A stretch of DNA of 64,000 bases from Sphingopyxis sp. (GTDB lineage Bacteria > Pseudomonadota > Alphaproteobacteria > Sphingomonadales > Sphingomonadaceae), in the NCBI RefSeq assembly GCF_050916055.1, contig NZ_CP051527.1, positions 2,737,066-2,801,065 of the forward strand, in the 5' to 3' direction. The translations under genes were made by a program, and so were the position numbers. The notes beneath the pieces were generated by a model that saw nothing but the letters and a program-made list of their open reading frames with translations, was not told the origin of the DNA and ran no database searches. Of this stretch, positions 7,377 to 60,278 are shown piece after piece (position 1 is the first letter of the stretch; each line of letters opens with the position of its first letter).

Positions 7377-8054
7377 CTATCCTTCGATCAGCAACAGGCT
7401 CGCCTGCGTCTCCGCTTTGATCGTCAGGCAGGCTTCGTTCCGGATCGCCAGGCCATCGTGGCGCGTCATGCGATGGCTTTCGATGTTGATCGTGCCCGCC
7501 ATGACGACGAGATAGGCGAACTCGCTGGCCAGATGCAGATCAAGGGCCTGTCCGCCTGCCAGCTCCAGCCATTTGACCCGGGCGGACGTTCGCAGCCGGA
7601 CGTGCGCGACGTCATCGTCTTCGCCGCTGGCCAGCCAATCGCGCACAGCGGACAGCGCAACCGGCTCACGATAAACGGCCCGCTCGTCCGCATCACTGGA
7701 AAGGCCGATCGTGGTGAAGGATGCTGGCTTCGAAGACCGGTTGGCAATGCCGAACTCCGCTCCGGTGCCGGCGGCGATATAGGCGAAGCGGTTCTGCCCG
7801 ATCGCCATGTCGCGGCCTGAATGCCGCTTGATATAGATCTCGCCGTCCTCGACGATGACGAGCATTTCGGTTGCGAAGTGGGAGCTTGGTTGCAGTTCGG
7901 CGCCAGCGGCGAGACGGTCGTGATTGATGTAACGGGTCCGTCCCCATTCGAGGCGATCGACATCCTGGTAGCCGGCGAAGCAAAAATGGTGCCGCGCTTG
8001 GAGCCATGCGAGATCGGTCTCGCCGAGATCGGACGCGGCGCGATATTCGATCAC
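7377..8054 (-). CDS. Pirin-family (YhhW-like) bicupin with degenerate metal site
   Basis: WLQARHHFCFAGY...YINHDRL, AAGTG and C-terminal DGLAI...LLL match YhhW-like pirins. GTG start inferred. Confidence 0.75.
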   Translation of the reverse strand: MIEYRAASDLGETDLAWLQARHHFCFAGYQDVDRLEWGRTRYINHDRLAAGAELQPSSHFATEMLVIVEDGEIYIKRHSGRDMAIGQNRFAYIAAGTGAEFGIANRSSKPASFTTIGLSSDADERAVYREPVALSAVRDWLASGEDDDVAHVRLRTSARVKWLELAGGQALDLHLASEFAYLVVMAGTINIESHRMTRHDGLAIRNEACLTIKAETQASLLLIEG

Positions 8055-8313
8055 GGGCGCCCGCTTTCGTCTTGCGTCACGATCCATTGCAGTTCGAGCC
8101 GGGCGCCGCCCGCGGTCAACCGCACCGATTCTTCGGGCAAGTCCAGCGCGGCCGCGACCTTCGCGCGCAGGGCAGGATTTCCGCCGACGATGCGCAGCGC
8201 CAGATCGCGTCGCCGCGCGGCCCATGCCGCCGTCGCCACGGCCTTCCGGCCAGCGGCATCCAGCTCGTCGCCGTCGAAGGTCACCGCGGGCAGATCGAGA
8301 GCGGGCGGCACTA

Positions 8314-9162
8314 GGCCGCGTTGACAAAAGGGATTCCCAAACGGGTCGGGTTCTGATTCAGAGCTGCTTTTTGGGGAGCAGTCATGGGTCGCGGGGATTT
8401 GTCGGATGCGGAGTGGGCGCTGATCGGGCCGCTGTTGCCGTCTGAGCGGGGACGCTGGGCGCGTCCGGCGGGCGATAACCGACGATTCCTGAACGGGATG
8501 CTTCATGTGCTGCGGGTCGGCTGCCCGTGGCGCGACATGCACGAGCGCTATGGCAAGTGGAACTCGGTCTATGTCCGGTTCCGGCGCTGGGCCGAACAAG
8601 GGGTCTGGGATGCCCTGCTGCAAACGCTGGTCGATCTGGGGCTGACCGACGACTGGCAGCACATGATCGACAGCACCACGGTTCGCGGCCATGTCTCGGC
8701 TGTGGGCGGAAAAGGGGGGATGCTGCGAACGCTTTTGGTCGATCACGCGGCGGCTTTACGTGCAAGGTCCACGCCCGCTCGGACAATCAGGGACGCCCTC
8801 TCGGTTTCCTCCTGACCGGCGGCGAAGCATCGGATTACGCCGCCGCCGAACCGTTGATGAAAATCCCGGTCGCCAAGCCCAAGGCGCTGCTCGCCGATAA
8901 GGGCTATGACGGTGATCGCTTCCGCGAAAGCCTGCTGATCCAGGGCATCTTGCCGATCATCCCGCCGCGCTCGAACCGCAAGGCGCCCGATCATCCCGAC
9001 TATCGGCGCTACAGGGATCGCAACCGCATCGAGCGCATGTTCGGCAAGCTCAAGCAACAGCGCCGCATCGCCACCCGTTACGACAAATCCGTCCTGTCCT
9101 TCGAGAGCTTCCTCAACCTCGCCGCCGTCCGACTATGGTTGAAGTCTTTTGTCAACGCAGCC
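8314..9162 (+). mobile_element. IS5-family (IS427 group) insertion sequence, complete, 849 bp
   Basis: 17-bp TIRs GGCCGCGTTGACAAAAG / CTTTTGTCAACGCAGCC (16/17 match); TA duplication within a CTAG target. Confidence 0.93.
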
Positions 9163-9838: not shown

Positions 9839-10249
9839 GTGCTAGGTATTTTTATTGCCGCCACAGCTATGGCAGCCTCGCTTTGGTCGCTGCCTGTATC
9901 TGCTGAAGATGCCCCTCGTTGCTCATCCTCTGCTATTCCCGCAGCAGACAAGGCTCGCCTCAGTGCGCAATATAATCGGCGGCTTTTGACTGAAGGGAAA
10001 ACCAGCGCCGATGCTTGGGCTGCTGAGCAGGGTAGGCGCTATCGTGAAATGATGGAAAAGCAAGGGATATGCCCCCCACGCAAACCCGTGAATAATTCGG
10101 CCAATTCAACGCCTCCGCCTAGGGAGCAACCGACAAGCAACAACCGTAAAAAAGGCAAGTGTACCCGTACCGTCTGGCAAACTCGTCATATCGCGAGCCC
10201 GGGTGGAGGTCCCATGAATATAATTAGGGTGCCGGTCTGCGTAAACTAG
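9839..10249 (+). CDS. Hypothetical secreted protein
   Basis: AGGAGG RBS before a GTG start; signal peptide ending VSA-ED; 4 Cys. The stop TAG is part of the CTAG target of IS copy 2. Confidence 0.6.
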   Translation: MLGIFIAATAMAASLWSLPVSAEDAPRCSSSAIPAADKARLSAQYNRRLLTEGKTSADAWAAEQGRRYREMMEKQGICPPRKPVNNSANSTPPPREQPTSNNRKKGKCTRTVWQTRHIASPGGGPMNIIRVPVCVN

Positions 10250-10838
10250 GCTGTGTTGACAAAAGGGATTCCCAAATCGGCCTTGTTCTGATTCAAGACT
10301 GCTTTTTGAGGAGCAGTCATGGGTCGCGGGGATTTGTCGGATGCGGAGTGGGACCTGATCGGGCCGCTGCTGCCGCCAGAGCGCGGTCGTTGGGCGCGGC
10401 CGGCGGGCGATAACCGGCTTTTCCTCAATGGAATGCTTCACGTGCTGCGGGTCGGCTGTCCCTGGCGCGACATGCATGAGCGATACGGCAAGTGGAACTC
10501 CGTCTATGTGCGCTTCCGTCGCTGGGCCGAACAAGGTGTCTGGGATGCCCTGCTGCAAACACTGGTCGACCTGGGTCTGACCGACGACTGGCAACACATG
10601 ATCGACAGCACCAGCGTTCGCGGCCACGTCTCGGCAGCGGGCGGAAAAGGGGGGCTTGTGCGAACGCTCTTGGTCGATCACGCGGCGGCTTTACGAGCAA
10701 GATCCACGCCCGTTGCGACAATCAGGGACTGCCTGTCGGCTTCATCCTGACCGGCGGCGAGGCTTCCGACTACACCGCTGCCGAACCGCTGATGGCGATC
10801 CCCGTCGCCACACCCACGGCGCTGCTCGCGGACAAGGG
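10249..10838 (+). mobile_element. Second IS5/IS427-type copy, diverged and 3'-truncated
   Basis: Left TIR GGCTGTGTTGACAAAAG after CTA. OrfA 10319-10750 is near-identical in protein to copy 1. OrfB breaks after LLADKG. Confidence 0.9.
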
Positions 10839-38007: not shown

Positions 38008-38526
38008 CTAAGCGGAAAAGATCGACGCCTTGCCCTGCATGTCGAACGCCATCACATCGAAAGCGTCCTGGCTCCCATCGGGCATTTCCATGCCCGGCGA
38101 GCCCCGCGGCATGCCGGGAACGGCGATCCCCCGGATGTTGCGCGGCTTGTCACGGAGCAGCTTTGCGACATGCGGCATCGGCACATGACCTTCGATCGCA
38201 TAGCCGGCAACGATCGCGGTGTGGCACGACGCCAGGTCGGGCGGAACGCCATAGCGTTCCTTCACTGCGGCCATGTCAGCGCGACTCTCGACAGTCACGT
38301 TATAGCCAGCCTTGCGTGCGATATCGGCCCACGCCTCGCAGCAGCCGCATTCGGGGTCGCGGTAAACGAGCATCGCCTGGCTCCCGCCGCTGCTTGCCGG
38401 CAAAGCGGCCCCCGCCGTATCCGTTCCGGCAGCAGGCCGCCGATCGCATCCAACAAGCGCGGCACCGCCTGCAACGGCGAACAAGCCAAGAAGGCTTCGC
38501 CGGCTGTAATTTGAGGTCGGCGTCAT
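38008..38526 (-). CDS. DUF411 metal-binding protein (CopG-like)
   Basis: SRRSLL leader with VGC, CGCCEAW, ASCHTA, IEGHVP, GIAVPGMP.GSPGME. Confidence 0.88.
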   Translation of the reverse strand: MTPTSNYSRRSLLGLFAVAGGAALVGCDRRPAAGTDTAGAALPASSGGSQAMLVYRDPECGCCEAWADIARKAGYNVTVESRADMAAVKERYGVPPDLASCHTAIVAGYAIEGHVPMPHVAKLLRDKPRNIRGIAVPGMPRGSPGMEMPDGSQDAFDVMAFDMQGKASIFSA

Positions 38527-38966
38527 TTTCGGTCCAATATTCGCTTCATCTGGTCGATCTCTGCCTTTTGGCCCGCAATGATGCCGCGGCACAATTCAAG
38601 CACCTCGGGGTCCGAGAGGCGGGCTTGCGCGCACATGAGGACAGCGCCCGAATGATGCGGGATCATCGACCGCAGGAAGGCCTGGTCGCCGATCGTGGTC
38701 TGCGTGCGAATGAGCCCGAAGCTGCCAAAGAAGGCGAGCGCCGCTCCGCCCAAAAGGAGGATGTTTCGGCGCTTGTCAGGAAACATGTCGGGCATGGCGA
38801 TGATCATCAGGACGACCATCGGCGCCACCATCATGAGCGTCATATAGGCCATGTTGAGATTGTTGTAGAAGCTCGACAGACGATCAATCATCACGAACAT
38901 GACGAGATACATGATAACGGCGCCGACGAGCGTTTGCCAGGCGAGGCTTCGATAAGCTGACTTCAC
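38523..38966 (-). CDS. DUF305 (CopM-like) protein with TM helices
   Basis: FLRSMIPHHSGAVLMC, II.GQ..EI..M; AGGAGA RBS before GTG. Confidence 0.8.
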   Translation of the reverse strand: MKSAYRSLAWQTLVGAVIMYLVMFVMIDRLSSFYNNLNMAYMTLMMVAPMVVLMIIAMPDMFPDKRRNILLLGGAALAFFGSFGLIRTQTTIGDQAFLRSMIPHHSGAVLMCAQARLSDPEVLELCRGIIAGQKAEIDQMKRILDRK

Positions 38967-38998
38967 GGCAATTCTCCTATCTGTTGCCCCGCCGCGAG

Positions 38999-40201
38999 TT
39001 AGAACCAGACCCGCACCCCTGCGACCAGGCTGACGCTGCTTGGGTCTTCCCCTGCGGCCCGCGTGAAACGGGCCGTATCGCCGACCTTGCGTTCCCATTC
39101 GACTCCGACATAGGGGGCGAATTCCTTGACGATTTCGTAACGCAGGCGCAGCCCGAGCTCCACGTCGGACAAGCCGGACCCGACCCCGATTTCGGGAACA
39201 TCTTGTAACGCGAAATTCAGCTCGGCTATCGGCTGGAGGATCAGTTTCTGGGTGATGCGCTGGTCATAATAGCCTTCAAGCCGGCCGTGCAGATCGCCCT
39301 TGTTCGACAAGAACAGGGCGCCCTCGACCTCGAACCAATAGGGCGCGAGCCCCTCGAAGCCCACTGTCGCATAGGTGCGATCGGGACCGGGTCCGAGATC
39401 CTGCCGAATGCCGGCCTGGGCGTTGAAATAGGGGCCGACGGCACGGCTGTAGAGCAATTGCGTCTCGGTGCCTTCGATGCCCTCGCCAAAAACCCCCTCG
39501 CCTTCGCTTTTGACGGTGAGCCGATTGATATCGCCACCATACCAGGCTTCGCCGTCCCAGCGAAAGCCGTCATGCCCTTTGCGCGCCTGATATTCGGCGA
39601 GGTTGAAACTGATGAAGGCGATTTTCTGCGCGCCATTTTCTTCCATCATCGCATGGCGCGAATGCTCCATTTCGGCCTTGGGATAGATGCGGTCGGCATA
39701 CCAGTCGCTGGGCGGCGCCGGCGCGGCGGCATCGCCCGGAGGCAAGTCGGTGCCGCTCGCCCCGCCCATTCCGGCCATGCCTTCCATCAGTTCCATCGTT
39801 GCGTCCTTCGGCATGCAATGGCCCATCTTGGCATGTTCGGGCGGACAGTCGGGATCGGCCGGGGCCACCGTGCCTTGGTCCATCGCGCCCATGTCCGGCA
39901 TTTCCGCGCTCGAGCCGCTGTCCGAAGACTTTGCCTCGGGCGTGCAATGGCCCATCGCCGCATGCTCGGGCGCGCAACTTGCGTCCTTGGGTTTCATATC
40001 CATGCCGCCATGATCCATCTCGGGCATCGGCGCGGGTTCGGATTGCGGCGGCGGAGCCGGCTGCGGCTTGGCAGCTGGCTTCTTCGGCTCGGCCGGCATG
40101 GTCATGCCCGGCATCGACGAATGATCCATCGACTGCGCGGTGGCGGGAACGGCGAAAGCGAGCGCGGCGGTGCCGGCGAGGAAAAGCGAAGCGCGGGTCA
40201 C
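38999..40201 (-). CDS. copB: Copper resistance protein B
   Basis: Met/His-rich N-terminus, WYGGDINRL, GLAPYWFE, GLRLRYEI..EFAPYVG, C-terminal RVWF. Confidence 0.96.
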   Translation of the reverse strand: MTRASLFLAGTAALAFAVPATAQSMDHSSMPGMTMPAEPKKPAAKPQPAPPPQSEPAPMPEMDHGGMDMKPKDASCAPEHAAMGHCTPEAKSSDSGSSAEMPDMGAMDQGTVAPADPDCPPEHAKMGHCMPKDATMELMEGMAGMGGASGTDLPPGDAAAPAPPSDWYADRIYPKAEMEHSRHAMMEENGAQKIAFISFNLAEYQARKGHDGFRWDGEAWYGGDINRLTVKSEGEGVFGEGIEGTETQLLYSRAVGPYFNAQAGIRQDLGPGPDRTYATVGFEGLAPYWFEVEGALFLSNKGDLHGRLEGYYDQRITQKLILQPIAELNFALQDVPEIGVGSGLSDVELGLRLRYEIVKEFAPYVGVEWERKVGDTARFTRAAGEDPSSVSLVAGVRVWF

Positions 40202-42048
40202 TCTGCGTCTCCCTTCGGACGGACGCTGACGACGCGCATCATCCCGGCGTGCATATGGTAGAGCATATGACAGTGGAACGCCCAGTCACCGAGCGCGTCG
40301 GCGGTGAAATCGAAGCTGGCGGTGCCTCCGGGCTGAACGAGAACCGTATGCTTGCGCGGCGAGCGATCGCCCTTGCCCGTGACCAGTTCGAAGAAATGGC
40401 CATGGAGGTGGATGGGATGGCTCATCATCGAATCGTTGATGAGGTTGATCCGCACCCGCTCACCCTCGATGAAGGGGATCGGCTCATGATGGTCGGACAT
40501 CTTGACGCCATCGAACGACCACATGAACCGCTCCATATTGCCGGTCAGATGAATGTCGAGCGAGCGTTCGGCGGCGCGCACATCGGGATTGCGCTCGAGC
40601 GCCACCAGATCATGATAGGTGAGCACCTTGTGCCCGACATTTTCGAGCCCCTGCCCCGGCTCGCCCATGCGATCGACCGGCATCGGCGAGATGGTCTGGA
40701 CACTCGGGTCGCGTTTGACCTGCGGGGCGACGTCGAAATCGCGCATGCTGTGCTGCATTCCGCCACCCGATCCATGATCCATCCCCGCCATCGCGCCGCC
40801 TTCGGCCGCGGGCGTGCAATGGCCCATCTTGGCATGTTCGGGCGAGCAGGCAGGATCGCTTGCGGGCATTGGCATGGCCCCCGTGGCGCCACCGCCCGAA
40901 TGGTCCATTCCCGCCATGGAACCGCCTGACATGTCCATGTCGCCCATCCCCATGTCCTTCATGGTCGCGAGCGGGCGTTCGCGCAGCGGCGGGACGTCGG
41001 CGGCCATGCCGGCGCGCGGCGCAAGCGTCGCACGCCCCATGCCCGAGCGGTCGTTGGCTTCGGCGACAAGCGTATAGGCGCGGTCCTCGACCGGCGTGAC
41101 AATGACATCGTAAGTTTCCGCAACGGCGATCTGGAACTCGTCGATTTCGGTTGGGACGACGTTGAGCCCGTCGGCCTGCACGACGGTCAGCCTGAGGCCC
41201 GGAATGCGCACGTTGAAGATCGTCATCGCCGAGGCGTTGATGATCCGCAGCCGCACCCGCTCGCCGGGATTGAAGAGCGCGGTCCAATTGTCGCGCGGGC
41301 CATGGCCGTTGACGAGGAAGCTATAGGTCGATCCGTTGACATCGGCGACGTCGGTCGGATCCATGCGCATCTTGCCCCATTCGATGCGTTCCTTCAGTGA
41401 TTGGTCCTTGCCGGCCAGGAGACCGGAAAGCGTCTGTCGCTGCATGTTGAAATGGCCGGGGTTGACCTTCAACTTGCGGAAGATCGCCTCGGGAGACAAT
41501 TGGCTGTGGTCGGACAGGACGACGACATGCTCGCGGTCAAAGCCGATCGGATCGGGACCTGCGGGATCGATGACGATCGGGCCATAATGGCCAAGCTGCT
41601 CCTGCAGTCCCGAATGGCTGTGATACCAATAGGTCCCCGACTGGACGACGGGGAATTCGTAAACGAAGTTTGAGCGCGGCTTGATGCCGGGGAAGCTGAC
41701 GCCCGGGACGCCATCCATCTGGAACGGCAGGATTAGGCCATGCCAATGGATCGAGCTGTCCTCGTCGAGATCGTTGACGACCGTGAGGCGCGCGGTCTGG
41801 CCTTCCTTCAGGCGAACGAGCGGCGCGGGCACCGTCCCGTTGATCCCGATCGCTCGGCTGACCTTGCCGTCGATCCGCATCGTCTGGCGCGCGATACGAA
41901 GGGTGATGTCATTGCCCGACACCGTCGGCAGCGGCGCGACGATGCCTGGCGACACCGATTGGGCCCACGCCGGAAACCAGGGCGCCAGCGCGGCCACTGT
42001 CCCGCCGCCCAATGCACCCGTCACGAAACGACGCCTGTCTATCTGCAT
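40198..42048 (-). CDS. copA: CopA-family multicopper oxidase
   Basis: Tat leader DRRRF; HWHG, YWYHSH, HPIHLHGH, HCHMLYHMHAGM. Confidence 0.97.
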   Translation of the reverse strand: MQIDRRRFVTGALGGGTVAALAPWFPAWAQSVSPGIVAPLPTVSGNDITLRIARQTMRIDGKVSRAIGINGTVPAPLVRLKEGQTARLTVVNDLDEDSSIHWHGLILPFQMDGVPGVSFPGIKPRSNFVYEFPVVQSGTYWYHSHSGLQEQLGHYGPIVIDPAGPDPIGFDREHVVVLSDHSQLSPEAIFRKLKVNPGHFNMQRQTLSGLLAGKDQSLKERIEWGKMRMDPTDVADVNGSTYSFLVNGHGPRDNWTALFNPGERVRLRIINASAMTIFNVRIPGLRLTVVQADGLNVVPTEIDEFQIAVAETYDVIVTPVEDRAYTLVAEANDRSGMGRATLAPRAGMAADVPPLRERPLATMKDMGMGDMDMSGGSMAGMDHSGGGATGAMPMPASDPACSPEHAKMGHCTPAAEGGAMAGMDHGSGGGMQHSMRDFDVAPQVKRDPSVQTISPMPVDRMGEPGQGLENVGHKVLTYHDLVALERNPDVRAAERSLDIHLTGNMERFMWSFDGVKMSDHHEPIPFIEGERVRINLINDSMMSHPIHLHGHFFELVTGKGDRSPRKHTVLVQPGGTASFDFTADALGDWAFHCHMLYHMHAGMMRVVSVRPKGDAE

Positions 42049-45777: not shown

Positions 45778-48099
45778 ATGCAGGAAGATCATCACGCGGC
45801 GGTCGAGGATAACGCAACGGTCGATCCGGTTTGCGGCATGACGGTGGATCCCGCAACAACGTCGCATCGCGCGACCCATGCGGGCTTGGACCATTATTTC
45901 TGCAGTGCGGGCTGCCTTGCCAAATTCGAGGCCGACCCCGAGCGCTACGCGGCAACGCGGGAAGCGGCACCGGCGATTGCCGCCGAGGGCGCGATCTGGA
46001 CCTGCCCGATGCACCCGGAGATCCGGCGCTCCGGCCCCGGAAGCTGCCCGATCTGCGGCATGGCGCTCGAACGCGTCATGCCCGAAGCGGTCGCGGGGCC
46101 GAGCGAAGAATATCGCGACATGCGACGTCGTTTCTGGATCGGGCTCCTGCTCGCCCTTCCGGTGCTCGCGCTCGAGATGGGCGGCCATCTGACCGGCCTT
46201 CATCAATATGTAGACCGCTCGACGAGCAACTGGATTCAGATGTTGCTCGCGACGCCCGTCGTTCTGTGGGCGGGCTGGCCCTTCTTCGAGCGGGCATGGC
46301 TCTCGGTCCGAAACAAGAGCCTCAACATGTTCACCCTCATCGCGATGGGGACGGGCGTCGCCTGGGCCTACAGCATGGTCGCGGCCCTCCTGCCCGGGAT
46401 ATTCCCCGGTGCGTTTCGCGCCGCCGACGGTTCGGTCGCGGTCTATTTCGAAGCGGCAGCCGTTATCACGGTGCTTGTCCTGCTGGGACAGGTGCTCGAG
46501 CTCAGGGCGCGCGAGACGACAAGCGGCGCAATCCGCGCACTTCTCGACTTGACGCCCAAGCTTGCGAGGCGGGTGCGCGGCGACGGGAGCGACGAGGAAG
46601 TCGCACTTGAGGATGTCGCGGTCGGTGATGTGCTGCGCATCCGTCCGGGCGAGAAGGTCCCGGTCGACGGCATCGTGGTCGAAGGCCGCGGCACGGTCGA
46701 TGAGTCGCTGGTCACGGGCGAATCGATGCCCGTCACAAAGGAGGCCGGCGCCGCGCTGATCGGGGGAACGATCAATCAGACGGGCGGGCTGCTGATGCGC
46801 AGCGAGAAGGTCGGCCGCGACACGATGCTCGCCCGCATCGTGCAAATGGTTGCCGACGCGCAGCGCAGCCGGGCGCCGATCCAGCGCCTCGCCGACACCG
46901 TTTCTGGCTGGTTCGTTCCCGGCGTCATCGCCGTTGCTGTTGCTGCGTTTATCGTCTGGTCGATTCTCGGACCGGCGCCCGCGATGGCCTATGGCCTGAT
47001 TGCGGCCGTCTCGGTGCTGATCATCGCCTGTCCCTGTGCGCTCGGCCTCGCAACGCCGATGTCGATCATGGTTGGCGTCGGACGCGGCGCCGAAGCCGGG
47101 GTGCTGATCAAGAATGCCGAAGCGCTCGAACGAATGGAAAAGGTCGATACGCTCGTCGTCGACAAGACGGGGACCCTTACCGAGGGCAAGCCCTCGGTCG
47201 TTGCCATCGAAGTCGCAGATGGGTTCGACGAAAATGACCTGCTCGCGATCGCAGCCAGCCTCGAGCGCAGCAGCGAGCATCCTCTTGCGCTCGCGATCGT
47301 CAAGGCGGCCGAGGAGCGGGGTCTCGCGCTCGTCGAGCCTTCAGGGGTCGATCAGCCGGTGGGCAAAGGGATCGTCGGCTCGGTCGAAGAGAAGGCGATT
47401 GTCCTCGGCAATGCTGCCTTTCTTGAAGAATATGACGTTGACCTCGCGGGGCTTGCCGCGGCGGCCGACCGTCTTCGCGCCGAGGGCGCGACCGCGATCT
47501 ATATCGCCGTCAACGGCCAAGCGGCCGGCGTCATCGCGATTGCCGATCCCGTCAAGGCAACGACAAGCGAAGCCCTCTCTGCCCTGCGCGACGCGGGCAT
47601 AAGGGTCATCATGCTGACCGGCGACAATCGCGTCACCGCCGAGGCGATCGCGCGGCGCCTCGGTATTGCCGACGTCGAGGCCGATGTCCTGCCGGACCAG
47701 AAGAGCGCCGTCGTCCAGCGGCTCCGCGCAGAAGGCCGGATCGTCGCCATGGCGGGGGACGGGGTCAACGACGCGCCCGCGCTCGCCGCCGCCGATGTCG
47801 GCATTGCGATGGGCTCGGGAACCGACGTCGCGATCGAAAGCGCGGGCGTCACCTTGCTGCGCGGCGATCTTCTCGGCATCGTTCGGGCGCGGCACCTCAG
47901 CCATGCGACGATGTCGAATATCCGGCAGAACCTCTTCTTTGCCTTCGCCTATAATGTTGCGGGCATCCCGATCGCAGCGGGCGCGCTCTACCCGCTGTTC
48001 GGACTTCTTCTATCGCCGATCATCGCCGCTGCCGCGATGGCGCTCTCCTCGGTCAGCGTCATCGCCAATTCGCTGCGGCTGCGATTCGTGAAAATCTGA
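45778..48099 (+). CDS. P1B-type copper-translocating ATPase with YHS and TCPMHP domains
   Basis: DPVCGM...YFCSAGC, WTCPMHP, CPICGM, TGES, CPC, DKTGT, GDGVND, YN and MALSS. Confidence 0.96.
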
Positions 48100-49061: not shown

Positions 49062-49092
49062 TTGACTCCGTACTATGGTACGCAACCTATAT
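49062..49092 (+). promoter_or_regulatory. MerR-type promoter/operator resembling merOP
   Basis: TTGACT-19 bp-CTATAT with dyad CGTAC-TATG-GTACG. Confidence 0.85.
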
Positions 49093-49128
49093 GAGAGGGA
49101 GCATAAGGGAATCAAGAAAGGTAGAATC

Positions 49129-49947
49129 ATGAATACCCAGCTCCAAGACGCTCGAAGCAGGCAATCCGCGCCCGGCGCACAGGCGGTCGGACGGCCTCGC
49201 GCGACGATCTACCGCATGGTGATGGAGCATCATATCTGTCCCTATGGCTTGAAGGCCCTACATCTCTTGCGCAGCCGGGGCTATGAGGTCGAAGACGTCT
49301 GGCTGAGGACGCGCGAGGAAACCGATGCCTTTAAGGCGAAGCATGGCGTCGCGACGACGCCGCAGACTTTCATCGAAGGCGAGCGCATCGGCGGTCACGA
49401 CGATTTGCGGCGCCATTTGGGTCTAAAGGTTCGAGATCCCAAGGCGCTCACCTACACGCCGATCATCGCGCTATTTTCGATCACCGCCCTGATGGCGCTG
49501 GCAGCGAGCCAGGCTGTGGCGGGCACGCCGTTTACCGTCCGCGCCGCCGAGTGGTTCATCGGCTTCAGCATGGCGCTGCTGGCCTTTCTGAAGCTGCGCG
49601 ACATCGAGAGCTTCTCGAGCATGTTTCTGAACTATGACCTTCTCGCAAAGCGCTGGGTTCCCTATGCCACCATCTATCCCTTCGCCGAGGCCCTTGCCGG
49701 CATCTTGATGATTTCGGGCGCGCTCAGCTGGATTTCGATCCCGGTCGCGCTCTTCATCGGGACCATCGGCGCCGTTTCGGTGTTCAAGGCGGTCTATATC
49801 GACAAGCGCGAGCTCAAATGCGCGTGCGTCGGCGGCGACAGCAACGTTCCGCTCGGCTTCATATCGCTGACCGAGAATCTGATGATGATCGCGATGGCCG
49901 TGTGGATGCTGCTCGCGCCCGCCGCCATGGTGATGGGGCAGCGGTAG
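49129..49947 (+). CDS. Glutaredoxin-MauE/DoxX fusion membrane protein
   Basis: CPYG, TTPQTFI.GERIGG.DDL, then MauE-like TM region with YPFAE and CACVGG. Confidence 0.85.
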   Translation: MNTQLQDARSRQSAPGAQAVGRPRATIYRMVMEHHICPYGLKALHLLRSRGYEVEDVWLRTREETDAFKAKHGVATTPQTFIEGERIGGHDDLRRHLGLKVRDPKALTYTPIIALFSITALMALAASQAVAGTPFTVRAAEWFIGFSMALLAFLKLRDIESFSSMFLNYDLLAKRWVPYATIYPFAEALAGILMISGALSWISIPVALFIGTIGAVSVFKAVYIDKRELKCACVGGDSNVPLGFISLTENLMMIAMAVWMLLAPAAMVMGQR

Positions 49948-50485: not shown

Positions 50486-50752
50486 ATGAAGATGATATTT
50501 GCGACGGCCGCAGCGCTTGCGGCTATCACCACGGCCCCGTCCTTCGCCCAGGAGGCGGCAGGCGGCCATTATGAATGGCAGTTCCGTCAGGTTCCTGGCC
50601 CGAACAAGTCGGGCATCGCGCCGCGCGAGCGCGTCTGGGTCAAAGACAAGACCGCACAGATGGCCAATTGCGACTGCGACATGATGAAGGCCGACGCGGC
50701 CGACTGCATGAAGGCCATGCACGGACTGCATTCATCACCCGCCAAGGGCTGA
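50486..50752 (+). CDS. Small secreted Cys/Met/His-rich protein
   Basis: GAGG RBS, signal peptide ending SFA, MANCDCDMMK..ADCMKAMH. Confidence 0.7.
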   Translation: MKMIFATAAALAAITTAPSFAQEAAGGHYEWQFRQVPGPNKSGIAPRERVWVKDKTAQMANCDCDMMKADAADCMKAMHGLHSSPAKG

Positions 50753-50761
50753 CGGTCCCGT

Positions 50762-50783
50762 CCCCCGGCCTGCGGGCCGGGGG
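50762..50783. other. Intercistronic GC hairpin (9-bp stem, TGCG loop)
   Basis: CCCCCGGCC-TGCG-GGCCGGGGG; no U tract, so not called a terminator. Confidence 0.45.
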
Positions 50784-50814
50784 GCATAAGCTCATCATCT
50801 CTCGAGGGGGACAT

Positions 50815-52044
50815 ATGCGCATATTCCTAGCAGCAGCGATGCTGATCCCGATATCGTCCGCGCTCCATGCCGAGCCGATGACGCTCGACGCCGCGGTCCG
50901 CCTGGCGGAGACGCAGGCGCCGGAACTGCGGGGACGCGAAGCGGGGATCGACGCGGCCGAGTCTTCGGCGATCGCGGCCGACCGGCTGCCCGATCCGAAA
51001 CTCGACCTTGCGATCAAGGATTTCCCGGTCACCGGTCCCGACGCGGGGCGATTCAATCGCGACGATTTCACGATGCAGGTCATCGGCATCAGTCAGGACT
51101 TTCCCAATCCCGCCAAGCGCCGGGCGCGCGCAACGCGCGCGCAAGCCGACATCGGGATTGCGCGGGCCGATGAAGCGGTCACCGCGCAGGACGTCCGGCT
51201 GGCGACCGCGCTCGCCTGGGTCGACCTCTTCTATGCGAAGAAGCGCCTGAAAGAACTCGACCTGCTCGATGCCGGTCTTGAAGATTTGCAAGCAACAGTC
51301 ACCGCGCGCCTTGCGAGCGGCGCGGCGCGTCCGGCGCAGGCGCTCGAACCCGAACAGCTGCGCGCCGCGGTCAGCGACCGCCGCAGCACCCTCGCCGCCG
51401 AGATCGCCCGCGCCCGCGCGCAGCTTGGGCGCTACACCGGCGACCGGGCCGCTGATACCGCGGGTGACCCGCCGCCGCCCATGGTCGATGCATCGCTTCT
51501 GCGCGCGCGCATCGACAGCTTGCCGCGGCTCCGCGCGCTCGACGCCCGCGCCCTCGCGGCCGATGCCGAGACCGGCCTCGCCCGTGCCGACAAGCGGCCC
51601 GACTGGAGCGTCAATGCGGCCTATGGGCGGCGCGAGCCCAATTATGGCGATCTTGTCACGCTCGGCGTCACCATCGACCTCCCCTTCTTCTCGAAGAAGC
51701 GGCAGGACCCCAAGATCGCGGCCCGCGCCAGCGAAGCGACGCGCGCGCGTCTCGACCGCGAGGCGGCCAAGCGCGACATCGCGGCGGCACTCGACGCTGA
51801 TCTGGCCGATCATCGCATGCATCACGAGCAGCTGGGCAATGCGCGGTCGCGGCTGGTGCCGCTCGCGAAGAAGCGCGCCGAACTCGACCTCGCGAGTTAC
51901 GCCGCCGGAAAACTCGATCTCGGAGCCGCGCTGCTGTCGACGCTCGCGTTGGCGGAAGCCGAAGTCGATGCGCTGGCGCGCGAAGCCGAGGTGGCGCGCG
52001 ACGCGATCCGGATCAATTATATCTATGGGGAGACGGGGCAATGA
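50815..52044 (+). CDS. TolC-family outer-membrane efflux protein (CusC-like)
   Basis: Signal peptide, LPDPKL, ISQDFP, TIDLPFF; first gene of the RND trio. Confidence 0.9.
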   Translation: MRIFLAAAMLIPISSALHAEPMTLDAAVRLAETQAPELRGREAGIDAAESSAIAADRLPDPKLDLAIKDFPVTGPDAGRFNRDDFTMQVIGISQDFPNPAKRRARATRAQADIGIARADEAVTAQDVRLATALAWVDLFYAKKRLKELDLLDAGLEDLQATVTARLASGAARPAQALEPEQLRAAVSDRRSTLAAEIARARAQLGRYTGDRAADTAGDPPPPMVDASLLRARIDSLPRLRALDARALAADAETGLARADKRPDWSVNAAYGRREPNYGDLVTLGVTIDLPFFSKKRQDPKIAARASEATRARLDREAAKRDIAAALDADLADHRMHHEQLGNARSRLVPLAKKRAELDLASYAAGKLDLGAALLSTLALAEAEVDALAREAEVARDAIRINYIYGETGQ

Positions 52045-53270
52045 CCGATGCAACTTCAGCGGCGCGGTGGCGCACCGGGATTTTGGCGGCTGTGCTGATT
52101 GCGGGCGGCGGCGGCTATTGGATCGGGCAGCGCGGCCAGGGCGAAGCGCCGACCGGAGCGACGAGCAACGCGCGCAAGATCCTCTATTACTACGACCCGA
52201 TGTTTCCGAACCAGAAGTTCGACAAGCCCGGCAAGTCGCCTTTCATGGATATGCAGCTCGAGCCCAAATATGCCGATGAAGGCGGCGGCGCCACGGCCCC
52301 CGGCATATCGGTCGACCCCGCGGCGCGGCAAAGCCTCGGAATAAGGGTGGTCGCGGCTGAAATGGGCAGTCTCGCTGCAACCTTCGACGTAAATGGCACG
52401 GTGGATTTCAACCAGCGTGACGTCGCGATCGTCCAGGCGCGCTCGGGCGGTTTCGTCGAACGCGTCTACCGGCTCGCGCCGGGCGACGTGATCCGCGCCG
52501 GTGCGCCGATCGCGGACCTGCAATTGCCCGAATGGGGCAGCGCGCAGACCGAATATCTGAGCGTCAAACGGCTCGGCAGACCCGACCTCACCGCTGCCGC
52601 CCGGCAGCGCCTTCGCCTGATGGGGATGCCCGAAGCGGTAATCGCGCAGGTCGATCGCAGCGGACGCACCAGCGGCACGGTGACGGTGCGCGCGCCGATC
52701 GGTGGCGTCGTCCAAACGCTGGGTGCGCGCGCCGGCGTGACCTTGGCCGAAGGCCAAACCCTCGCCGAAATCTCGGGCCTCGGAACGGTCTGGCTGAATG
52801 CCGCGCTCCCCGAAGCACAATCGGGCGCGGTGCAGGTCGGCCAGCGCGCGACCGCCAAGCTCACCGCCTTTCCGGGCGAGGCTTTCGGCGGCCGCGTCGT
52901 GGCCATTCTGCCAACGGCGGCAGCGGACAGCCGGACGCTGACCGTGCGCGTCGAGCTTGCCAACCGCGGCGGGCGCCTGCGCCCGGGCATGTTCGCGAGC
53001 GTCGCACTGGGCGGCGATGCGAGCCCCGCGCTGCTTGTGCCGAGCGAAGCGGTCATCCGCACCGGCACGCGCAGCATCGTCATGCTCGAGACGGGCGACG
53101 GGCGCTATCATCCTGCCGAAGTCCAGACCGGGCGCGAGGGCGGCGGCAAGACCGAGATATTGCGCGGCCTTGTCGCGGGCGAGAAGGTCGTTGCCTCGGG
53201 TCAGTTCCTCCTCGATTCCGAAGCGAGCCTGACCGGCATCGCCGTCCGGCCGCTGGAGGATGCGAAATGA
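52041..53270 (+). CDS. cusB: RND periplasmic adaptor subunit
   Basis: YYDPMFP...[28 protein letters not shown]. Confidence 0.92.
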
Positions 53271-56200
53271 TCGAACGGATCATTCGCGCATCGGTGGCCG
53301 CGCGCGGGCTGGTCGTCGCGGCGGCGCTGATCCTGACGCTGATCGGGATCGCTGCCGTCCGCACCACGCCGGTCGACGCCCTCCCCGATCTTTCCGACGT
53401 CCAGGTCATCATCCGCACCACCTATCCCGGCCAGGCGCCGCGCATCGTCGAGGACCAGGTCACCTATCCGATCACGACGACGATGCTTTCGGTTCCCGGC
53501 GCACGCGTCGTGCGCGGCTACAGCTTCGTCGGCGACAGCTTCGTCTATGTCCTCTTCGAGGACGGCACCGACCTCTATTGGGCGCGCAGCCGGGTACTCG
53601 AATATCTGAGCCAGGTGCAGAGCCGCCTTCCCGAAGGGGCGAAGGCGTCGCTTGGCCCTGACGCCACCGGCGTCGGCTGGATCTATGAATATGCGCTTGT
53701 CGACAAGAGCGGGCGCCACGATCTCGCCGAGCTGCGCAGCCTGCAGGACTGGTTCCTGCGCTTCGAGCTCAAGGCGGTGCCCGGCGTCGCCGAGGTCGCG
53801 AGCATCGGCGGCATGGTGCGGCAATATCAGATCCTCGTCGAACCGCAGAAGCTCGCCGCGTTCGGGGTCACCGCGCAGGATGTGACCGACGCGCTCAAGC
53901 GCGCCAATCAGGAGAGCGGCGGCGGGACGGTCGAAATGGCCGAAGCGGAATATATCGTTCGCGCCGGCGGCTACCTCAAAAGTCTCGACGATTTTCGCGC
54001 CGTGCCGCTCCGCACCACAGCGGGCGGCATTCCGGTGACGATCGGTGATGTCGCGATCGTCCAGATCGGCCCCGACATGCGGCGCGGGATCGCCGAACTC
54101 AATGGCGAAGGCGAAGTCTCAGGCGGCGTGATCGTGATGCGGCAGGGCCAGAATGCCCGCGAGGTGATCGAGGGGGTGCGCGCCAAGCTCGCCGAGCTGA
54201 AGCGCGGCCTGCCGCCAGGTGTGGAGATCGTCACCACCTATGACCGGTCGGGCCTGATCGACCGCGCGGTCGACAACCTCACCTCGAAGCTCGTCGAGGA
54301 ATTCATCATCGTCGCGGTCGTCTGCGCACTGTTCCTGTGGCACGCGCGCTCGGCGCTGGTTGCGATCCTCACGCTGCCGCTCGGCATATTGATCGCCTTC
54401 ATCGTCATGCGATTCCAAGGTCTCAACGCCAACATCCTGTCGCTCGGCGGCATCGCGATCGCGGTCGGGGCGATGGTCGACGCGGCGGTCGTGATGATCG
54501 AAAATGCCCACAAGCATATCGAACATTGGGAAAGGGATCATCCCGGCGAGCAGCTCGCCGGGCAGGAGCGTTGGCGTGTCATCACCGACGCCGCCGCCGA
54601 GGTCGGGCCGGCTCTGTTCCTGAGCCTCCTCATCATCACCTTTTCCTTCCTGCCAATCTTCACGCTGCAGGGTCAGGAAGGGAAACTCTTCGGGCCGCTC
54701 GCCTTCACCAAGACCTATGCCATGGCGGCGGCGGCGATCCTGTCGATCACGCTCGTCCCGGTTCTCATGGGCTGGCTCATCCGCGGACGGATACCCAGCG
54801 AACAGGCCAATCCCGTCAATCGCTGGCTGACGCACGCCTATCGACCCGCGCTCGACTGGGTTCTCCGTCGTCCCGGAAGGGCGCTGGCCATCGCGGGACT
54901 GATCTTCGCGAGCAGCCTGTGGCCGCTGACCCAGCTCGGTGGCGAATTTATGCCGCAGCTCGACGAGGGCGATCTCCTCTACATGCCCTCGGCGCTTCCC
55001 GGCATCTCGGCCGCCAAGGCGTCGAGCCTGCTCCAGCAGACCGACCGACTCATCAAGACCGTGCCCGAGGTCGAGAGCGTCTTCGGCAAGGCCGGACGCG
55101 CGGACACCGCGACCGATCCCGCCCCGCTCGAGATGTTCGAGACGACGATCCGCTTCAAGCCGCGCGATCAATGGCGCCCGGGCATGACGCCCGACAAGCT
55201 GGTCGCCGAGCTGGATGCGCGCGTGAAGGTCCCCGGCCTCGCCAATTTCTGGATCCCGCCGATCCGCAACCGCATCGACATGCTGGCGACCGGGATCAAG
55301 AGCCCGGTCGGCATCAAGGTCGCGGGATCGGACGTCGCCGAGATCGACCGCACCGCGAAGCGGATCGAGGAGGTCGTCCGCAAGGTCCCGGGCGTCGCCT
55401 CGGCGCTCGCCGAGCGGCTGACCGGCGGGCGCTATATCGACGTCGACATCGATCGCGCCGCCGCCGCGCGTTACGGTCTCAATGTCGCCGATGTGCAATC
55501 CATCGTCGGCGGCGTCATCGGCGGCGAGACGATCGGGCAGACCGTCGAGGGGCTTGCGCGCTATCCGATCAGCGTGCGCTATCCGCGCGAGCTCCGCGAC
55601 AGCCTCGGCAAGCTGGAGACTCTTCCCATACTCACGCCATCGCGCCAGCAGATCACCCTCGGCACCGTGGCAAGAGTGCGGATCAGCGACGGCCCTCCGA
55701 TGCTTCGCAGCGAGAATGCGCGGCCAGTGACCTGGATCTATGTCGATGGCCGCGACCGCGACCTCCAGACATTGGTGCGCGATATCCAGCAGGCGGTCGC
55801 GCGCGATGTCGAATTGCCGCCGGGCATCAGCATCTCCTACACGGGCCAGTTCGAATTCCTCGTCCGTGCGACCGAGCGGATGAAGATCGTCATACCCGTC
55901 ACGCTCGCGATCATCCTCGTCCTGCTTTACCTGACCTTCCGGCGCTGGGACGAGGCGCTGCTTATCATGGCGACCCTGCCCTTCGCGCTCACCGGCGGCC
56001 TCTGGCTGCTCTATCTGCTCGGCTACAACCAGTCGGTCGCGAGCGCAGTCGGGTTCATCGCGCTCGCGGGGGTTGCCGCCGAGTTCGGCGTCGTGATGCT
56101 CATCTATCTGAAGCAGGCGCTCGCGGCGCGCGGCGACGGTTCGATCGAGGCGGCGGTCCGCGACGGAGCCTTGCTCCGGGTCCGCCCCAAGGCGATGACC

Positions 56201-56401
56201 GTCGCGGTCATCCTGGCGGGGCTGTTCCCGATCCTCGTTGGAACGGGCACCGGATCCGAAGTGATGAGCCGGATCGCCGCACCGATGATCGGCGGGATGA
56301 TCACCGCGCCGCTGCTCTCGATGTTCATCATCCCCGCCGCCTATCTGTTGATGCGCCGGCGCTGGCCCGATCCACAACCGTTGGAAACCCCGAAGACGTG
56401 A
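53267..56401 (+). CDS. cusA: CusA/CzcA-family heavy-metal RND permease (Cu/Ag type)
   Basis: [63 protein letters not shown]. Real start at 53267. Confidence 0.96.
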
Positions 56402-57994: not shown

Positions 57995-59917
57995 CTAGGC
58001 CGCGTGCGGCGCCCTCGCCCGGTTGAACCAGAAACCCGCGGCCAGGACGATCGCGGCCGCCAATTGTGCGAGAAGCGTCTGAACCGTCGGGTACACCCCC
58101 AGTAGCGGGAATCGCGGAAACTCTGCCAGCGGCGTGACGCCGAGCAGGCCCGCTTCCTGCAGCCCGCCGATGCCCTTGCCGGCCAGGACGATCGCCAGCA
58201 CTGCGATCAGGGCCGCACTCCATGAGAAGAATTGCGTGATCGGCAAGCGCGCGCTGAAGCGCAGCATGGCCCACGCAATCAAGCCCAGCAGAATGGCCGC
58301 CGTCGCCGCTCCTGCGAGCATGGCACCGCCATTTCCCTGCGCCCATATGGCGGCGTAAAAGAGGATGGTCTCGAAGACCTCGCGATAGACAACGAGGAAG
58401 GTTAGACCGAAGAGGAACCACGCCGACCGGCGCGACAGGGCAGCGGAGATCTTCTCCTTGATATAACGCTGCCAGGCCTCGGCATTGCTTTTGCCGTGCA
58501 TCCAGATACCGACCGAGATCAGGATGATCGCGGCGAAGAGCGAGCCAAAGCCTTCGGTGAGTTCGCGCGATGCCCCGCTGATTCCGATGAAATAGGTGGC
58601 GACGAACCAGGTCGCCGCGCCCGCTGCAAGCGCCGACACCCAGCCGCCATGGACATAGCCCATCACGTCGGTTCGCCCGGTTTTGCGAAGAAAAGCCATC
58701 ATGGCGATGACGATCAGCAGCGCCTCAAGGCCTTCGCGTAGCAGGACTCCGAATGCGCCGAGAAAGCTCGACGAGGCGCTTGCCTGTTCGGGCGCGAGGG
58801 CCGCCTCGGCTTCGACGAACAGGCGGGCCACTTCGGCATTCGCCGCCTTCACCTCCGCGAGCGTGCGACCCTTTCCTATCGCCGAGCGCAAATTCCCCAT
58901 CGCCATCTCGATCTTCGCCATGAGGTCAGGATCGCGGGCCGCAAGCACCGGCTCGACGGGCTCGAAACCATCGAGATAGGCGGATAGTGCCAAGTCGGAC
59001 GCGGCGCCACGGTCGCCGGCCGCATAGGCTTTGAGGCTCGCGTCGAGGCGCTGGCGCGAGAGCATCAGCGAGCCGGCCGGTTTCGCAACGACGGCTTCGG
59101 GCTGGCGGCGCAGATATGAAGTCAGCGGCCCGGCCTTGCCGTCGCCCAGTTCACGGGCGATATCCGCGGGAGTCTTGCCGACGAGAGTCGCAAGATCGGG
59201 GATGGCGGCACGAACGCGCGCGTCCTTTTCCCACGTCTGTCGGCCCTGCGATTGCGACGATTCCGGAAACGCGAGGCTTCCGACGTAAAAGGACAGGGCC
59301 CAGCGGTCGCTGTCGGGGAGGGCTTCGAAGCTCGCCATCGACGTCCCCTCGAGCCCCTGCGAAATCACCTGATAGAGCGCGAACAGGCTGCGTTCGCGTG
59401 CGCGCGCCGCGTCGGTGAAGGCGATCGGGGGCGGATCGAGACCCGCGGCGCCCGGGCCGTTTCCGGCGCCGGTCGCGCCGTGACACATGGCGCAGTTTTC
59501 CGCATAGAGCTTCGCGCCGCGCGCCAGGTCGGGAGCCGAGCGCGGCGCGAGCGGAACGGGATAGCTTGCAAGCAAGGCCCCGGCGAGCTGCCGCGACTGC
59601 ACCTCGATGGTCGCCGGTGCGGATTTCGCTGCGATCGATTGGCGCAAGGTTGCGGCTTGGGCCACCAAATTTGGCTTGGCGGTCTTCTGCGGCAGGCGTT
59701 TCAAGCGCGTTTCGACCTGCGCTGCGAATTCGGTCATCTCGGCATATTCCGCCGGACTGACGACCTTGCCGCCGGACACCGCACCCGGATAATCCACCGC
59801 GACATAGTCAAGCAGCCGCCAAATGGTCTGAACCTCTGGCTCGCTCGCGCGCGCTGGCTGGAGAGCGACCAGCGTCATCAGCAGGAAAGCAAGCGCCCCC
59901 CTGCCCAGGGCACGCAT
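57995..59917 (-). CDS. Cytochrome c / FTR1 iron permease fusion (PbrT-like)
   Basis: LLDYVAVDY, CAMCHG heme motif, LLREGLEALL and YREVFETILF RExxE motifs. Start inferred. Confidence 0.92.
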   Translation of the reverse strand: MRALGRGALAFLLMTLVALQPARASEPEVQTIWRLLDYVAVDYPGAVSGGKVVSPAEYAEMTEFAAQVETRLKRLPQKTAKPNLVAQAATLRQSIAAKSAPATIEVQSRQLAGALLASYPVPLAPRSAPDLARGAKLYAENCAMCHGATGAGNGPGAAGLDPPPIAFTDAARARERSLFALYQVISQGLEGTSMASFEALPDSDRWALSFYVGSLAFPESSQSQGRQTWEKDARVRAAIPDLATLVGKTPADIARELGDGKAGPLTSYLRRQPEAVVAKPAGSLMLSRQRLDASLKAYAAGDRGAASDLALSAYLDGFEPVEPVLAARDPDLMAKIEMAMGNLRSAIGKGRTLAEVKAANAEVARLFVEAEAALAPEQASASSSFLGAFGVLLREGLEALLIVIAMMAFLRKTGRTDVMGYVHGGWVSALAAGAATWFVATYFIGISGASRELTEGFGSLFAAIILISVGIWMHGKSNAEAWQRYIKEKISAALSRRSAWFLFGLTFLVVYREVFETILFYAAIWAQGNGGAMLAGAATAAILLGLIAWAMLRFSARLPITQFFSWSAALIAVLAIVLAGKGIGGLQEAGLLGVTPLAEFPRFPLLGVYPTVQTLLAQLAAAIVLAAGFWFNRARAPHAA

Positions 59918-59966
59918 CAACGCGAAGGAAACGCTTTTGGAGAAAATCGCCACGCCAGCTGCCTTT

Positions 59967-59985
59967 ATTGAGAATGACTTGCATT
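59967..59985. promoter_or_regulatory. Fur-like box upstream of the FTR1 gene
   Basis: ATTGAGAATGACTTGCATT, 19 bp, resembles alphaproteobacterial Fur sites. Confidence 0.6.
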
Positions 59986-60053
59986 GACCGATCGGAGCGT
60001 GGCTATCAACCGGAAATCGGCGCTTGGCAATCGGCAAGCTGCCATCGACAGTC

Positions 60054-60278
60054 TCACCCGCAGCAGGTTTTGTCGCCGCTCTCCTGAATCGGCGGGCAAG
60101 GGATATCGCCGTAGGAACAATAGACGCAGCAGTCGCCAGGCTTGGGCTTGAGAACCGCACCGCAGCCGCGGCAATCGTAGAAATATTGGCACGCGTTGGT
60201 CGGCATGGTCTCGGTCGACTGGTGACCGCATTTCGGACAAGTCAGGGTCGAAAGCAGTTGGATCGCCGCGTCAGACAT
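60054..60278 (-). CDS. GDCCVxC-domain protein (11 Cys in 74 aa)
   Basis: TCPKCGH...MPTNAC..FYDC..CG..LKPKPGDCCVYCSYG..PCPP.Q. Confidence 0.92.
   Translation of the reverse strand: MSDAAIQLLSTLTCPKCGHQSTETMPTNACQYFYDCRGCGAVLKPKPGDCCVYCSYGDIPCPPIQESGDKTCCG

Follow-up and report, generated by a model that had tools for sequence, protein, structure and literature searches.

The multicopper oxidases of the CopA/PcoA type and the outer-membrane proteins of the CopB/PcoB type carry short repeats, or beads, rich in Met, His, and Asp, of which MDHSxMxGM and the Met-rich segment of CueO are classical forms. In CueO, PcoA, and CopA, the Met-rich segments provide additional copper-binding sites close to the type-1 site (PMC3847284; PMC8456105), and in the homologous PcoB of Caulobacter copper efflux is reported to depend on the N-terminal tail through its His and Met residues (PMC12509749). 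The same study calls CopB/PcoB-type tails "poorly conserved" (PMC12509749); they and the Met-rich inserts of CopA have been regarded as Cys-free, fuzzy copper sponges. A stretch of 64,000 nucleotides from Sphingopyxis sp. (contig NZ_CP051527.1, positions 2,737,066 to 2,801,065; hereafter the window, meaning the whole stretch analyzed) encodes a copA-copB pair whose products share an 11-residue motif, CxPEHAxMGHC. Our analysis indicates that this motif is most likely an undescribed, Cys-bracketed form of the known CopA/CopB copper-binding bead and not a new system.

The motif is found in the same two proteins and at the same positions as the classical beads, and coexists with them in the window proteins. 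Like them, it is a short repeat common to the oxidase and the outer-membrane protein and is built on a [D/E]-H-x-x-M core, here E-H-A-x-M; a Cys-free sister bead, D-H-A-A-M-G-H-G, lies in the same inserts. Unlike them, it adds two invariant Cys residues ten residues apart together with an invariant Pro, Gly, and second His, and it is much more strictly conserved, locally ordered in AlphaFold2 (AF2) models, and lineage-restricted. A further known bead, DPHAGHxM (E. coli PcoB; Caulobacteraceae and Sandarakinorhabdus CopB tails), occupies the same tail, with a Pro-led P-H-A-G-H to set beside the P-E-H-A-A-M-G-H of the motif, but it is Cys-free and shorter and has its Met after the second His, whereas the Met of the motif stands between the two. 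Up to eight repeats of (A)DPHAGHxM were seen in the CopB/PcoB tails of loci L143, L189, L208, L216, L147/L209/L223 (E. coli-type PcoB), and L042; in L042 it occurs together with the Cys motif. Neither the CopB tail nor the small motif-bearing proteins described below gave a significant match in Pfam-A or NCBIfam (E up to 10), no PDB sequence matches the motif segment, and full-text searches of the literature turned up nothing relevant on the motif sequence or on Cys residues in the tail of CopB.

The two genes, the regions that hold the motif, and the motif copies (located by six-frame translation) are as follows.

40198-42048, minus strand: copA, predicted periplasmic copper-resistance multicopper oxidase, 616 aa
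40744-40965, minus strand: CopA Met/His-rich insert, residues about 362-435, between cupredoxin domains 2 and 3 (from the translation and homologue alignments)
40816-40848, minus strand: CopA motif, C401-SPEHAKMGH-C411
38999-40201, minus strand: copB, outer-membrane beta-barrel copper resistance protein B, 400 aa
39707-40132, minus strand: CopB mature N-terminal tail, residues about 24-165, disordered, Pro/Ala/Met/His-rich, with MDHS/MDHG beads and two Cys motifs
39944-39976, minus strand: CopB motif 1, C76-APEHAAMGH-C86
39815-39847, minus strand: CopB motif 2, nearer the barrel, C119-PPEHAKMGH-C129

The predicted oxidase matches TIGR01480 over its full length (810.5 bits; cut-off 478.95), has all three CopA cupredoxin domains (PF07732, PF00394, and PF07731), and is 100% identical to CopA of Sphingopyxis sp. 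L1A2A; its N-terminus, MQIDRRRFVTG, reads in translation as a twin-arginine (Tat) leader. These features place it in the CopA/PcoA family (TIGR01480), with cuprous oxidase activity as a prediction, and its insert holds both classical GMDHS beads and the Cys motif. CopB begins with a Sec signal peptide, read from the sequence as MTRASLFLAGTAALAFAVPATA/QS, and matches PF05275 over residues 195-400 (297.4 bits) and the PcoB barrel structure (PDB 7PGE) over residues 200-400 (E = 2.8e-52). An AF2 model built with 120 homologues predicts a strand-only barrel with a predicted local distance difference test (pLDDT) score of 80-91, and the linkers of the tail score 34-50. This layout of barrel, signal peptide, and disordered His/Met-rich N-terminal domain assigns the protein, as judged from sequence and model, to the CopB/PcoB type. 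The stop codon of copA overlaps the GTG start of copB as GTGA (40198-40201), which suggests translational coupling of the two genes.

The original prediction, made on this DNA from its sequence, had placed one copy of the motif in CopA and two in CopB; six-frame translation shows these positions to be correct to the base and finds no other copy in the 64 kb. A degenerate DNA pattern for the motif has three matches in the window against 0.00 expected in 100 shuffles, which puts the motif far beyond chance.

Conservation of the motif was analyzed over 320 instances, which give the consensus [D/A]-[P/A]-x-C-[P/T/S/A/L]-P-E-H-A-[A>K]-M-G-H-C-[T>K]-[P>L>M], flanked by Ala/Pro-rich linkers, with C, E, H, M, G, H, and C essentially invariant. 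Several synonymous codons are used at every invariant residue (for Gly, GGC 145, GGG 109, GGT 36, and GGA 28; for Glu, GAA 179 and GAG 137), and this union of invariant residues with free codon variation argues for selection on the peptide, not on the DNA. The two Cys residues behave as a unit: the [D/E]-H-x-x-[M/L]-G-H cores of CopA and CopB have both in 282 cases, neither in 26, and one alone in 0. Glu and the preceding Pro accompany the Cys form, and Asp accompanies the Cys-free DHAAMGHG. In nearly all of 120 CopB homologues the number of Cys residues is twice the number of motifs, and within CopB motif 2 positions D116, P117, C119, P121-A124, M126-C129, and P131 are at least 90% conserved.

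That the metal-rich regions of CopA and CopB are usually Cys-free, as originally supposed, was borne out by a background sample of CopB/PcoB genes, picked by the barrel motif ELGLRLRYEI with a DNA pattern blind to the tail. Among 66 sampled proteins with a recognizable signal peptide, 65 have a Cys-free mature N-terminal tail, among them E. coli-type PcoB, proteins of Pseudomonas and Caulobacter, and about 19 from Sphingomonadales. The sole Cys-bearing tail, from Sphingomonas sp. Leaf34, has four Cys residues, which make up two copies of the motif. Other tails in the sample are strung with beads of the types MDHSxMxGM, DPHAGHxM, and MPGMDM, and the Cys motif adds to these a further bead type, which only a minority of sphingomonad systems and some few gammaproteobacteria employ.

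The CopA insert is hypervariable among CopA proteins that are otherwise 85-95% identical. The Cys motif is present in about 100 of 120 close CopA homologues, and a Cys-free MPGMEMPG cassette lies at the same site in about 17; proteins that are 88-93% identical outside this site bear one or the other. The insert is exchanged whole, on an enzyme core that hardly changes. Among CopA proteins, some with 87-93% identity to that of the window were seen in which an MPGMEMPG/MAGMDH cassette, Cys-free, replaces the Cys motif (P0102, P0108, P0112-P0117, and P0122-P0126; locus L063).

Structure prediction picks out the motif within otherwise disordered sequence. Both islands of confidence in the CopB tail sit exactly on the motifs, each with a one-turn helix over P-E-H-A-A/K: the block at residues 81-90 (motif 1) has a pLDDT of 81 and a helix at 78-82, and that at 121-130 (motif 2) a pLDDT of 84 and a helix at 121-125. 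In the CopA model, which failed as a whole (42 close homologues; mean pLDDT 36), the only helix of the insert, a weak one at residues 403-407, also falls on the motif.

The distribution of the motif was surveyed with a DNA-pattern scan of one genome per species (185,579 species), which gave at least 118 loci; the taxonomic split was read from record titles. The motif is mainly limited to some Sphingomonadales (about 89 of the loci listed) and a few Gammaproteobacteria. Among the matches listed, Lysobacteraceae account for 10 loci (Luteimonas, Pseudoxanthomonas, and others), Arenicella for 4, and unclassified proteobacterial metagenome-assembled genomes (MAGs) for 12; Thiolinea, Cypionkella, and an unclassified gammaproteobacterium have one each. 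Related copAB clusters are also held by sphingomonad plasmids. Two protein searches are no census: a full-library HMMER search returned 39 cluster representatives at E ≤ 0.001, with a single motif copy below threshold, and a word-indexed search with a 66-aa two-motif segment returned 7 fragments only.

Among the matches listed, BLAST relates 155 of the 156 reading frames with the motif to CopA or CopB, and the short ones are mostly CopB tails clipped at the edges of 8-kb chunks. Strict copies per protein in the same set range from 1 to 4 in CopA and from 1 to 6 in CopB. Odd numbers are frequent (one copy in 40 CopB and 51 CopA open reading frames [ORFs], three in 14 CopB ORFs), and each unit is therefore self-contained. 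Where both genes could be read (76 loci among the matches listed), the motif is in both proteins at 38, in CopB only at 25, and in CopA only at 13. Because the two proteins carry it independently, an obligatory, matched form of the metal hand-off between CopA and CopB that the original prediction raised as a possibility is not supported. Sandarakinorhabdus and Sandaracinobacter show the reverse of the usual distribution (L016, L020, L023, L041, L072, L079, L085, L087, and L111): their CopA has two to five tandem motifs spaced by about 25 residues, and the adjoining CopB tail is short and motif-free.

A few carriers lie outside these two families. At locus L033, on the minus strand between copA and copB, a small secreted ORF of about 103 aa, with a cluster relative of 107 aa (P0269), combines a signal peptide with TMDHSQH, a linker rich in Lys, Pro, and Ala, and a single motif (SDPSCPPEHAAMGHCTPKP), and resembles a CopB tail that lacks the barrel. 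A Sphingobium MAG (L059:656-1190, plus strand) encodes a 116-aa secreted protein with His-rich ends and one motif, whose tail, DCCKKDAKGKMACCEKARATGKDCC, has three CC pairs in the arrangement CC-x9-CC-x9-CC; it has no family match, and tblastn found no plasmid homologue. A 450-aa secreted protein from a metagenome contig (P0276; L226:388-1740) has two N-terminal motifs, DPSCPPEHAAMGHCTPK and DPSCPKEHADMGHCVPK, and about 380 remaining residues without Pfam, PDB, CopA, or CopB similarity; it represents a third protein family with the motif. These exceptions bear out the portability that had been proposed for the unit, which is nevertheless overwhelmingly borne by the CopA insert and the CopB tail.

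The reading that we favor, tentatively, and that may well be right, is that the motif is a Cys-bracketed [D/E]-H-x-x-M bead whose disulfide-closed loop pre-organizes a His/Met/His(/Glu) copper site on a flexible tether, from which the pore of CopB and the substrate site of CopA would be fed. That the motif binds copper, forms a disulfide, and feeds these sites is what we infer from sequence and models. A Cys-free bead resembling E-H-A-A-M-G-H would have given rise to the derived form by gaining the Pro and two Cys residues ten residues apart, and in the oxidizing periplasm the Cys residues would join as an intramotif disulfide. The 11-residue loop so closed, a one-turn helix (P-E-H-A-A) followed by an M-G-H turn, would hold Glu3, His4, Met7, and His9 in place as a compact copper site. 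Tethered in CopA, the loop would concentrate Cu(I), ready to be oxidized, beside the substrate and type-1 site; tethered in CopB, it would catch copper close to where the barrel opens into the periplasm.

The suggestion first made, of a metal site or a disulfide-closed loop, fits the strictly paired Cys, the invariant E/H/M/H, and the local order predicted by AF2. Because the core also occurs Cys-free, E/H/M/H would be the working ligands, and the Cys pair, Pro, and Gly would have been added to fix the conformation. The leader sequences indicate that CopB is Sec-exported and that the CopA insert and the CopB tail are both periplasmic. DsbA pairs consecutive Cys residues in Sec-exported periplasmic proteins. 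The oxidized state would be expected for a consecutive Cys pair in a Sec-exported tail in an aerobic periplasm. Several points weigh on the other side. CopA has a Tat leader and so folds in the reducing cytoplasm, from which its Cys pair could exit reduced and copper-loaded. The motif resembles the cupredoxin ligand loop C-T-P-H-Y-A-M-G-M, which favors thiolate ligation, as do the periplasmic Cys-based copper sites of CutF (C-x-x-H-C) and CopG (PMC8456105). Close CopA relatives do without the motif, which is therefore not essential for the system.

The main rival, possible if doubtful, is that the Cys residues stay reduced or copper-protected and serve as thiolate ligands, forming a high-affinity Cu(I) site (Cys2 plus His/Met), a built-in periplasmic chaperone that loads the catalytic coppers of CopA or holds Cu(I) before oxidation or efflux. 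The C-x3-H-x2-M of the motif lies within the spacing of type-1 ligand loops (C-x(2-4)-H-x(2-4)-M, compared with 1PAZ and the loops in PMC6115626), and, allowing one inserted Glu, 7 of 9 positions match the pseudoazurin loop C78-TPHYAMGM-86 (PDB 1PAZ). That loop and those of amicyanin (CTPHPFM) and plastocyanin (CSPHQGAGM) share with the motif the C-[ST]-P...H...M pattern, small residues, and Gly. The motif differs from the pseudoazurin loop, however, in the extra Glu between Pro and His, a His in place of the Met ligand, and the second Cys, and it lies outside the Pfam cupredoxin domains, in disordered linkers, with no Greek-key beta-sandwich to supply the upstream His ligand; the likeness may be convergent or coincidental. 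The C-x-x-H-C of CutF is needed to mature the multicopper oxidase CutO, and CopG/DUF411 (C-x-C-C) uses Cys-bridged copper (PMC8456105); a DUF411 gene lies two genes downstream of copB. Both resemble the motif in having a periplasmic Cys pair with an adjacent His and a tie to a periplasmic copper oxidase, but they are separate folded or small proteins with other Cys spacings, whereas the motif is built into CopA and CopB. Folding of CopA where thiols are reduced would suit thiolate ligation, and strict Cys pairing is as compatible with a bidentate ligand as with a disulfide. On the other hand, where the periplasm is aerobic and rich in copper, exposed dithiols are readily oxidized (established chemistry), none of the genes adjoining copAB is evidently a dedicated reductase, a thiolate sink would make it harder for Cu(I) to pass on to the pore or to the Met/His substrate site, and a Cys-free bead with the same core coexists beside the motif. 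A comparison of neighbor genes at motif-positive and motif-negative loci, with only 8 controls, brought out no partner gene. A bolder proposal, which we consider very unlikely, makes the 11-mer an autonomous copper-thiolate center, either a type-1-like loop free of its scaffold or a binuclear Cu2S2 site, that is redox-active and, on the CopA and CopB tethers, links the outer-membrane channel to the oxidase by a transfer of copper or electrons. The conserved residues of the motif (two Cys, two His, one Met, and one Glu) equal the CuA ligand set; if the proposal were true, no natural cupredoxin-type site would be smaller than this one, which would also stand as a new kind of short linear metal motif.

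Disulfides between motifs, as in the twin Cx9C hairpins of Cox17-type proteins, might draw the CopB tail together or link CopA and CopB by a covalent bond; the spacing is exactly Cx9C, CopB often has two copies, and the motif occurs in both proteins at 38 of the 76 loci where both genes could be read. It occurs in just one of them at the other 38, however, odd copy numbers are frequent in both proteins, and a continuous 11-residue helix does not fit a Pro at position 2, an invariant Gly at position 8, and a predicted helix of 5 residues only, all of which makes pairing between motifs a very improbable arrangement. Twin Cx9C (CHCH) proteins such as Cox17 have the spacing and a link to copper in common with the motif but are eukaryotic, with two motifs in antiparallel helices and structural inter-helix Cys residues; the CHCH fold was rejected as a candidate, since single and triple copies are common and Pro and Gly lie within the motif. 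It is improbable, too, that the motif is no metal site at all and acts as a docking epitope (for CopC, a protease, a chaperone, or the CopB barrel) or as a knot that stabilizes the chain against periplasmic proteases. Short, invariant islands of local order in a disordered region are what linear interaction motifs typically look like, and the Caulobacter PcoB tail is reported to affect protein homeostasis as well (PMC12509749); yet the residues kept invariant (Cys, His, Met, and Glu) are those that classically bind copper, and in two different proteins of a copper-resistance operon the motif takes the place of known copper beads and lies among them. Scarcely credible is a chance similarity or a purely DNA-level, very recent duplication with no selected function. 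The 30-nt exact repeat described below is the point in its favor; zero matches are expected by chance, and hundreds of instances at 118 or more loci in two proteobacterial classes keep the residues invariant while varying synonymously. The distribution and the synonymous variation refute it.

The copies of the motif in the window are also related as DNA, through the following repeats.

39814-39843: copB arm of a 30-nt exact direct repeat (partner 40815-40844)
40815-40844: copA arm of the same repeat (partner 39814-39843)
40809-40828: copA arm of a 20-nt exact repeat that overlaps the 30-nt one (partner 39937-39956, in the flank of copB motif 1)

The 30-nt identity between copA and copB was thus reported accurately; it is bounded by mismatches immediately on either side and is part of a broader 48-nt repeat, over which copA and copB motif 2 are 90% identical and copB motifs 1 and 2 are 71% identical. 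Because the 20-nt repeat overlaps the 30-nt one, the copA copy reads as a mosaic of both copB copies. In the clade of the window, the flanks and variable residues of the CopA copy agree with those of CopB motif 2 (DPxC.PEHAKMGHCTP); in the lineages of L010, L064, L078, L026, and L035, the CopA copy resembles CopB motif 1 instead. Identical codons across PEHAKMGHC would arise by chance at about 0.4%, given the observed codon frequencies, and in the closest relatives the CopA copy and CopB motif 2 differ at about four synonymous sites. Across genomes, the nucleotide likeness of copies is 0.729 within a genome and 0.696 between genomes (permutation p<1e-4). It is therefore likely that copA and copB have now and then exchanged sequence by conversion or cassette transfer, with one such event in this lineage. 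An origin of the motif by "recent duplication or conversion" stands as far as some exchange between the two genes goes and is otherwise too narrow, since the motif itself is old, widespread, and selected as a peptide. The deletion risk raised with the repeat is only theoretical: recombination at the 30-nt repeat would yield an in-frame CopA(1-411)::CopB(130-400) fusion, of which no instance was seen, although the public runs with the locus are contigs, in which rare variants would not show.

The copAB pair lies in a large copper/heavy-metal homeostasis island of Sphingopyxis.

38008-38592, minus strand: DUF411 (CopG-like) protein with a CGCC motif (PF04214, 85.6 bits)
38523-39098, minus strand: DUF305/CopM-like protein, directly downstream of copB (PF03713, 47 bits)
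45778-48099: P1B copper ATPase
49075-49947, plus strand: glutaredoxin-MauE fusion, just downstream of the P1B copper ATPase
50575-56401 and 57995-60160: CusC/CusB/CusA-type efflux system (OEP; HlyD_D23 protein with an HMBD domain) and a cytochrome c-FTR1 permease fusion

DUF411/CopG is a family of Cys-based periplasmic copper proteins (PMC8456105). The DUF305/CopM-like protein scores 47 bits against the CopM model NF049983, below its cut-off of 90. An extracytoplasmic function (ECF) sigma factor and a Metal_resist protein are encoded upstream of copA, and copC and copD lie on the opposite strand. The glutaredoxin-MauE fusion may be a membrane thiol-disulfide component of the island, with a bearing on the redox state of the motif Cys residues. 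The segments at 8320-8760 and 10255-10695, elsewhere in the window, share four exact direct repeats (22-43 nt each, offset by 1935 nt), a sign that they are paralogous; the ORFs that overlap them (8051-8746 and 10106-10681, both minus strand) have no Pfam match.

In tails and inserts of this kind there is now a sharply defined, Cys-bracketed unit, locally ordered in AF2 models, found in about a hundred species and exchanged in a cassette-like manner. It provides a marker for annotating one subgroup of copAB systems and, as a small synthesizable peptide (Ac-DPDCPPEHAKMGHCTPK), a means of asking how the tethers capture and release copper; if binding is confirmed, it may also serve as a compact copper-binding tag. 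For the aerobic soil and water bacteria that carry it, the motif opens the question of periplasmic thiol/disulfide chemistry in copper resistance.

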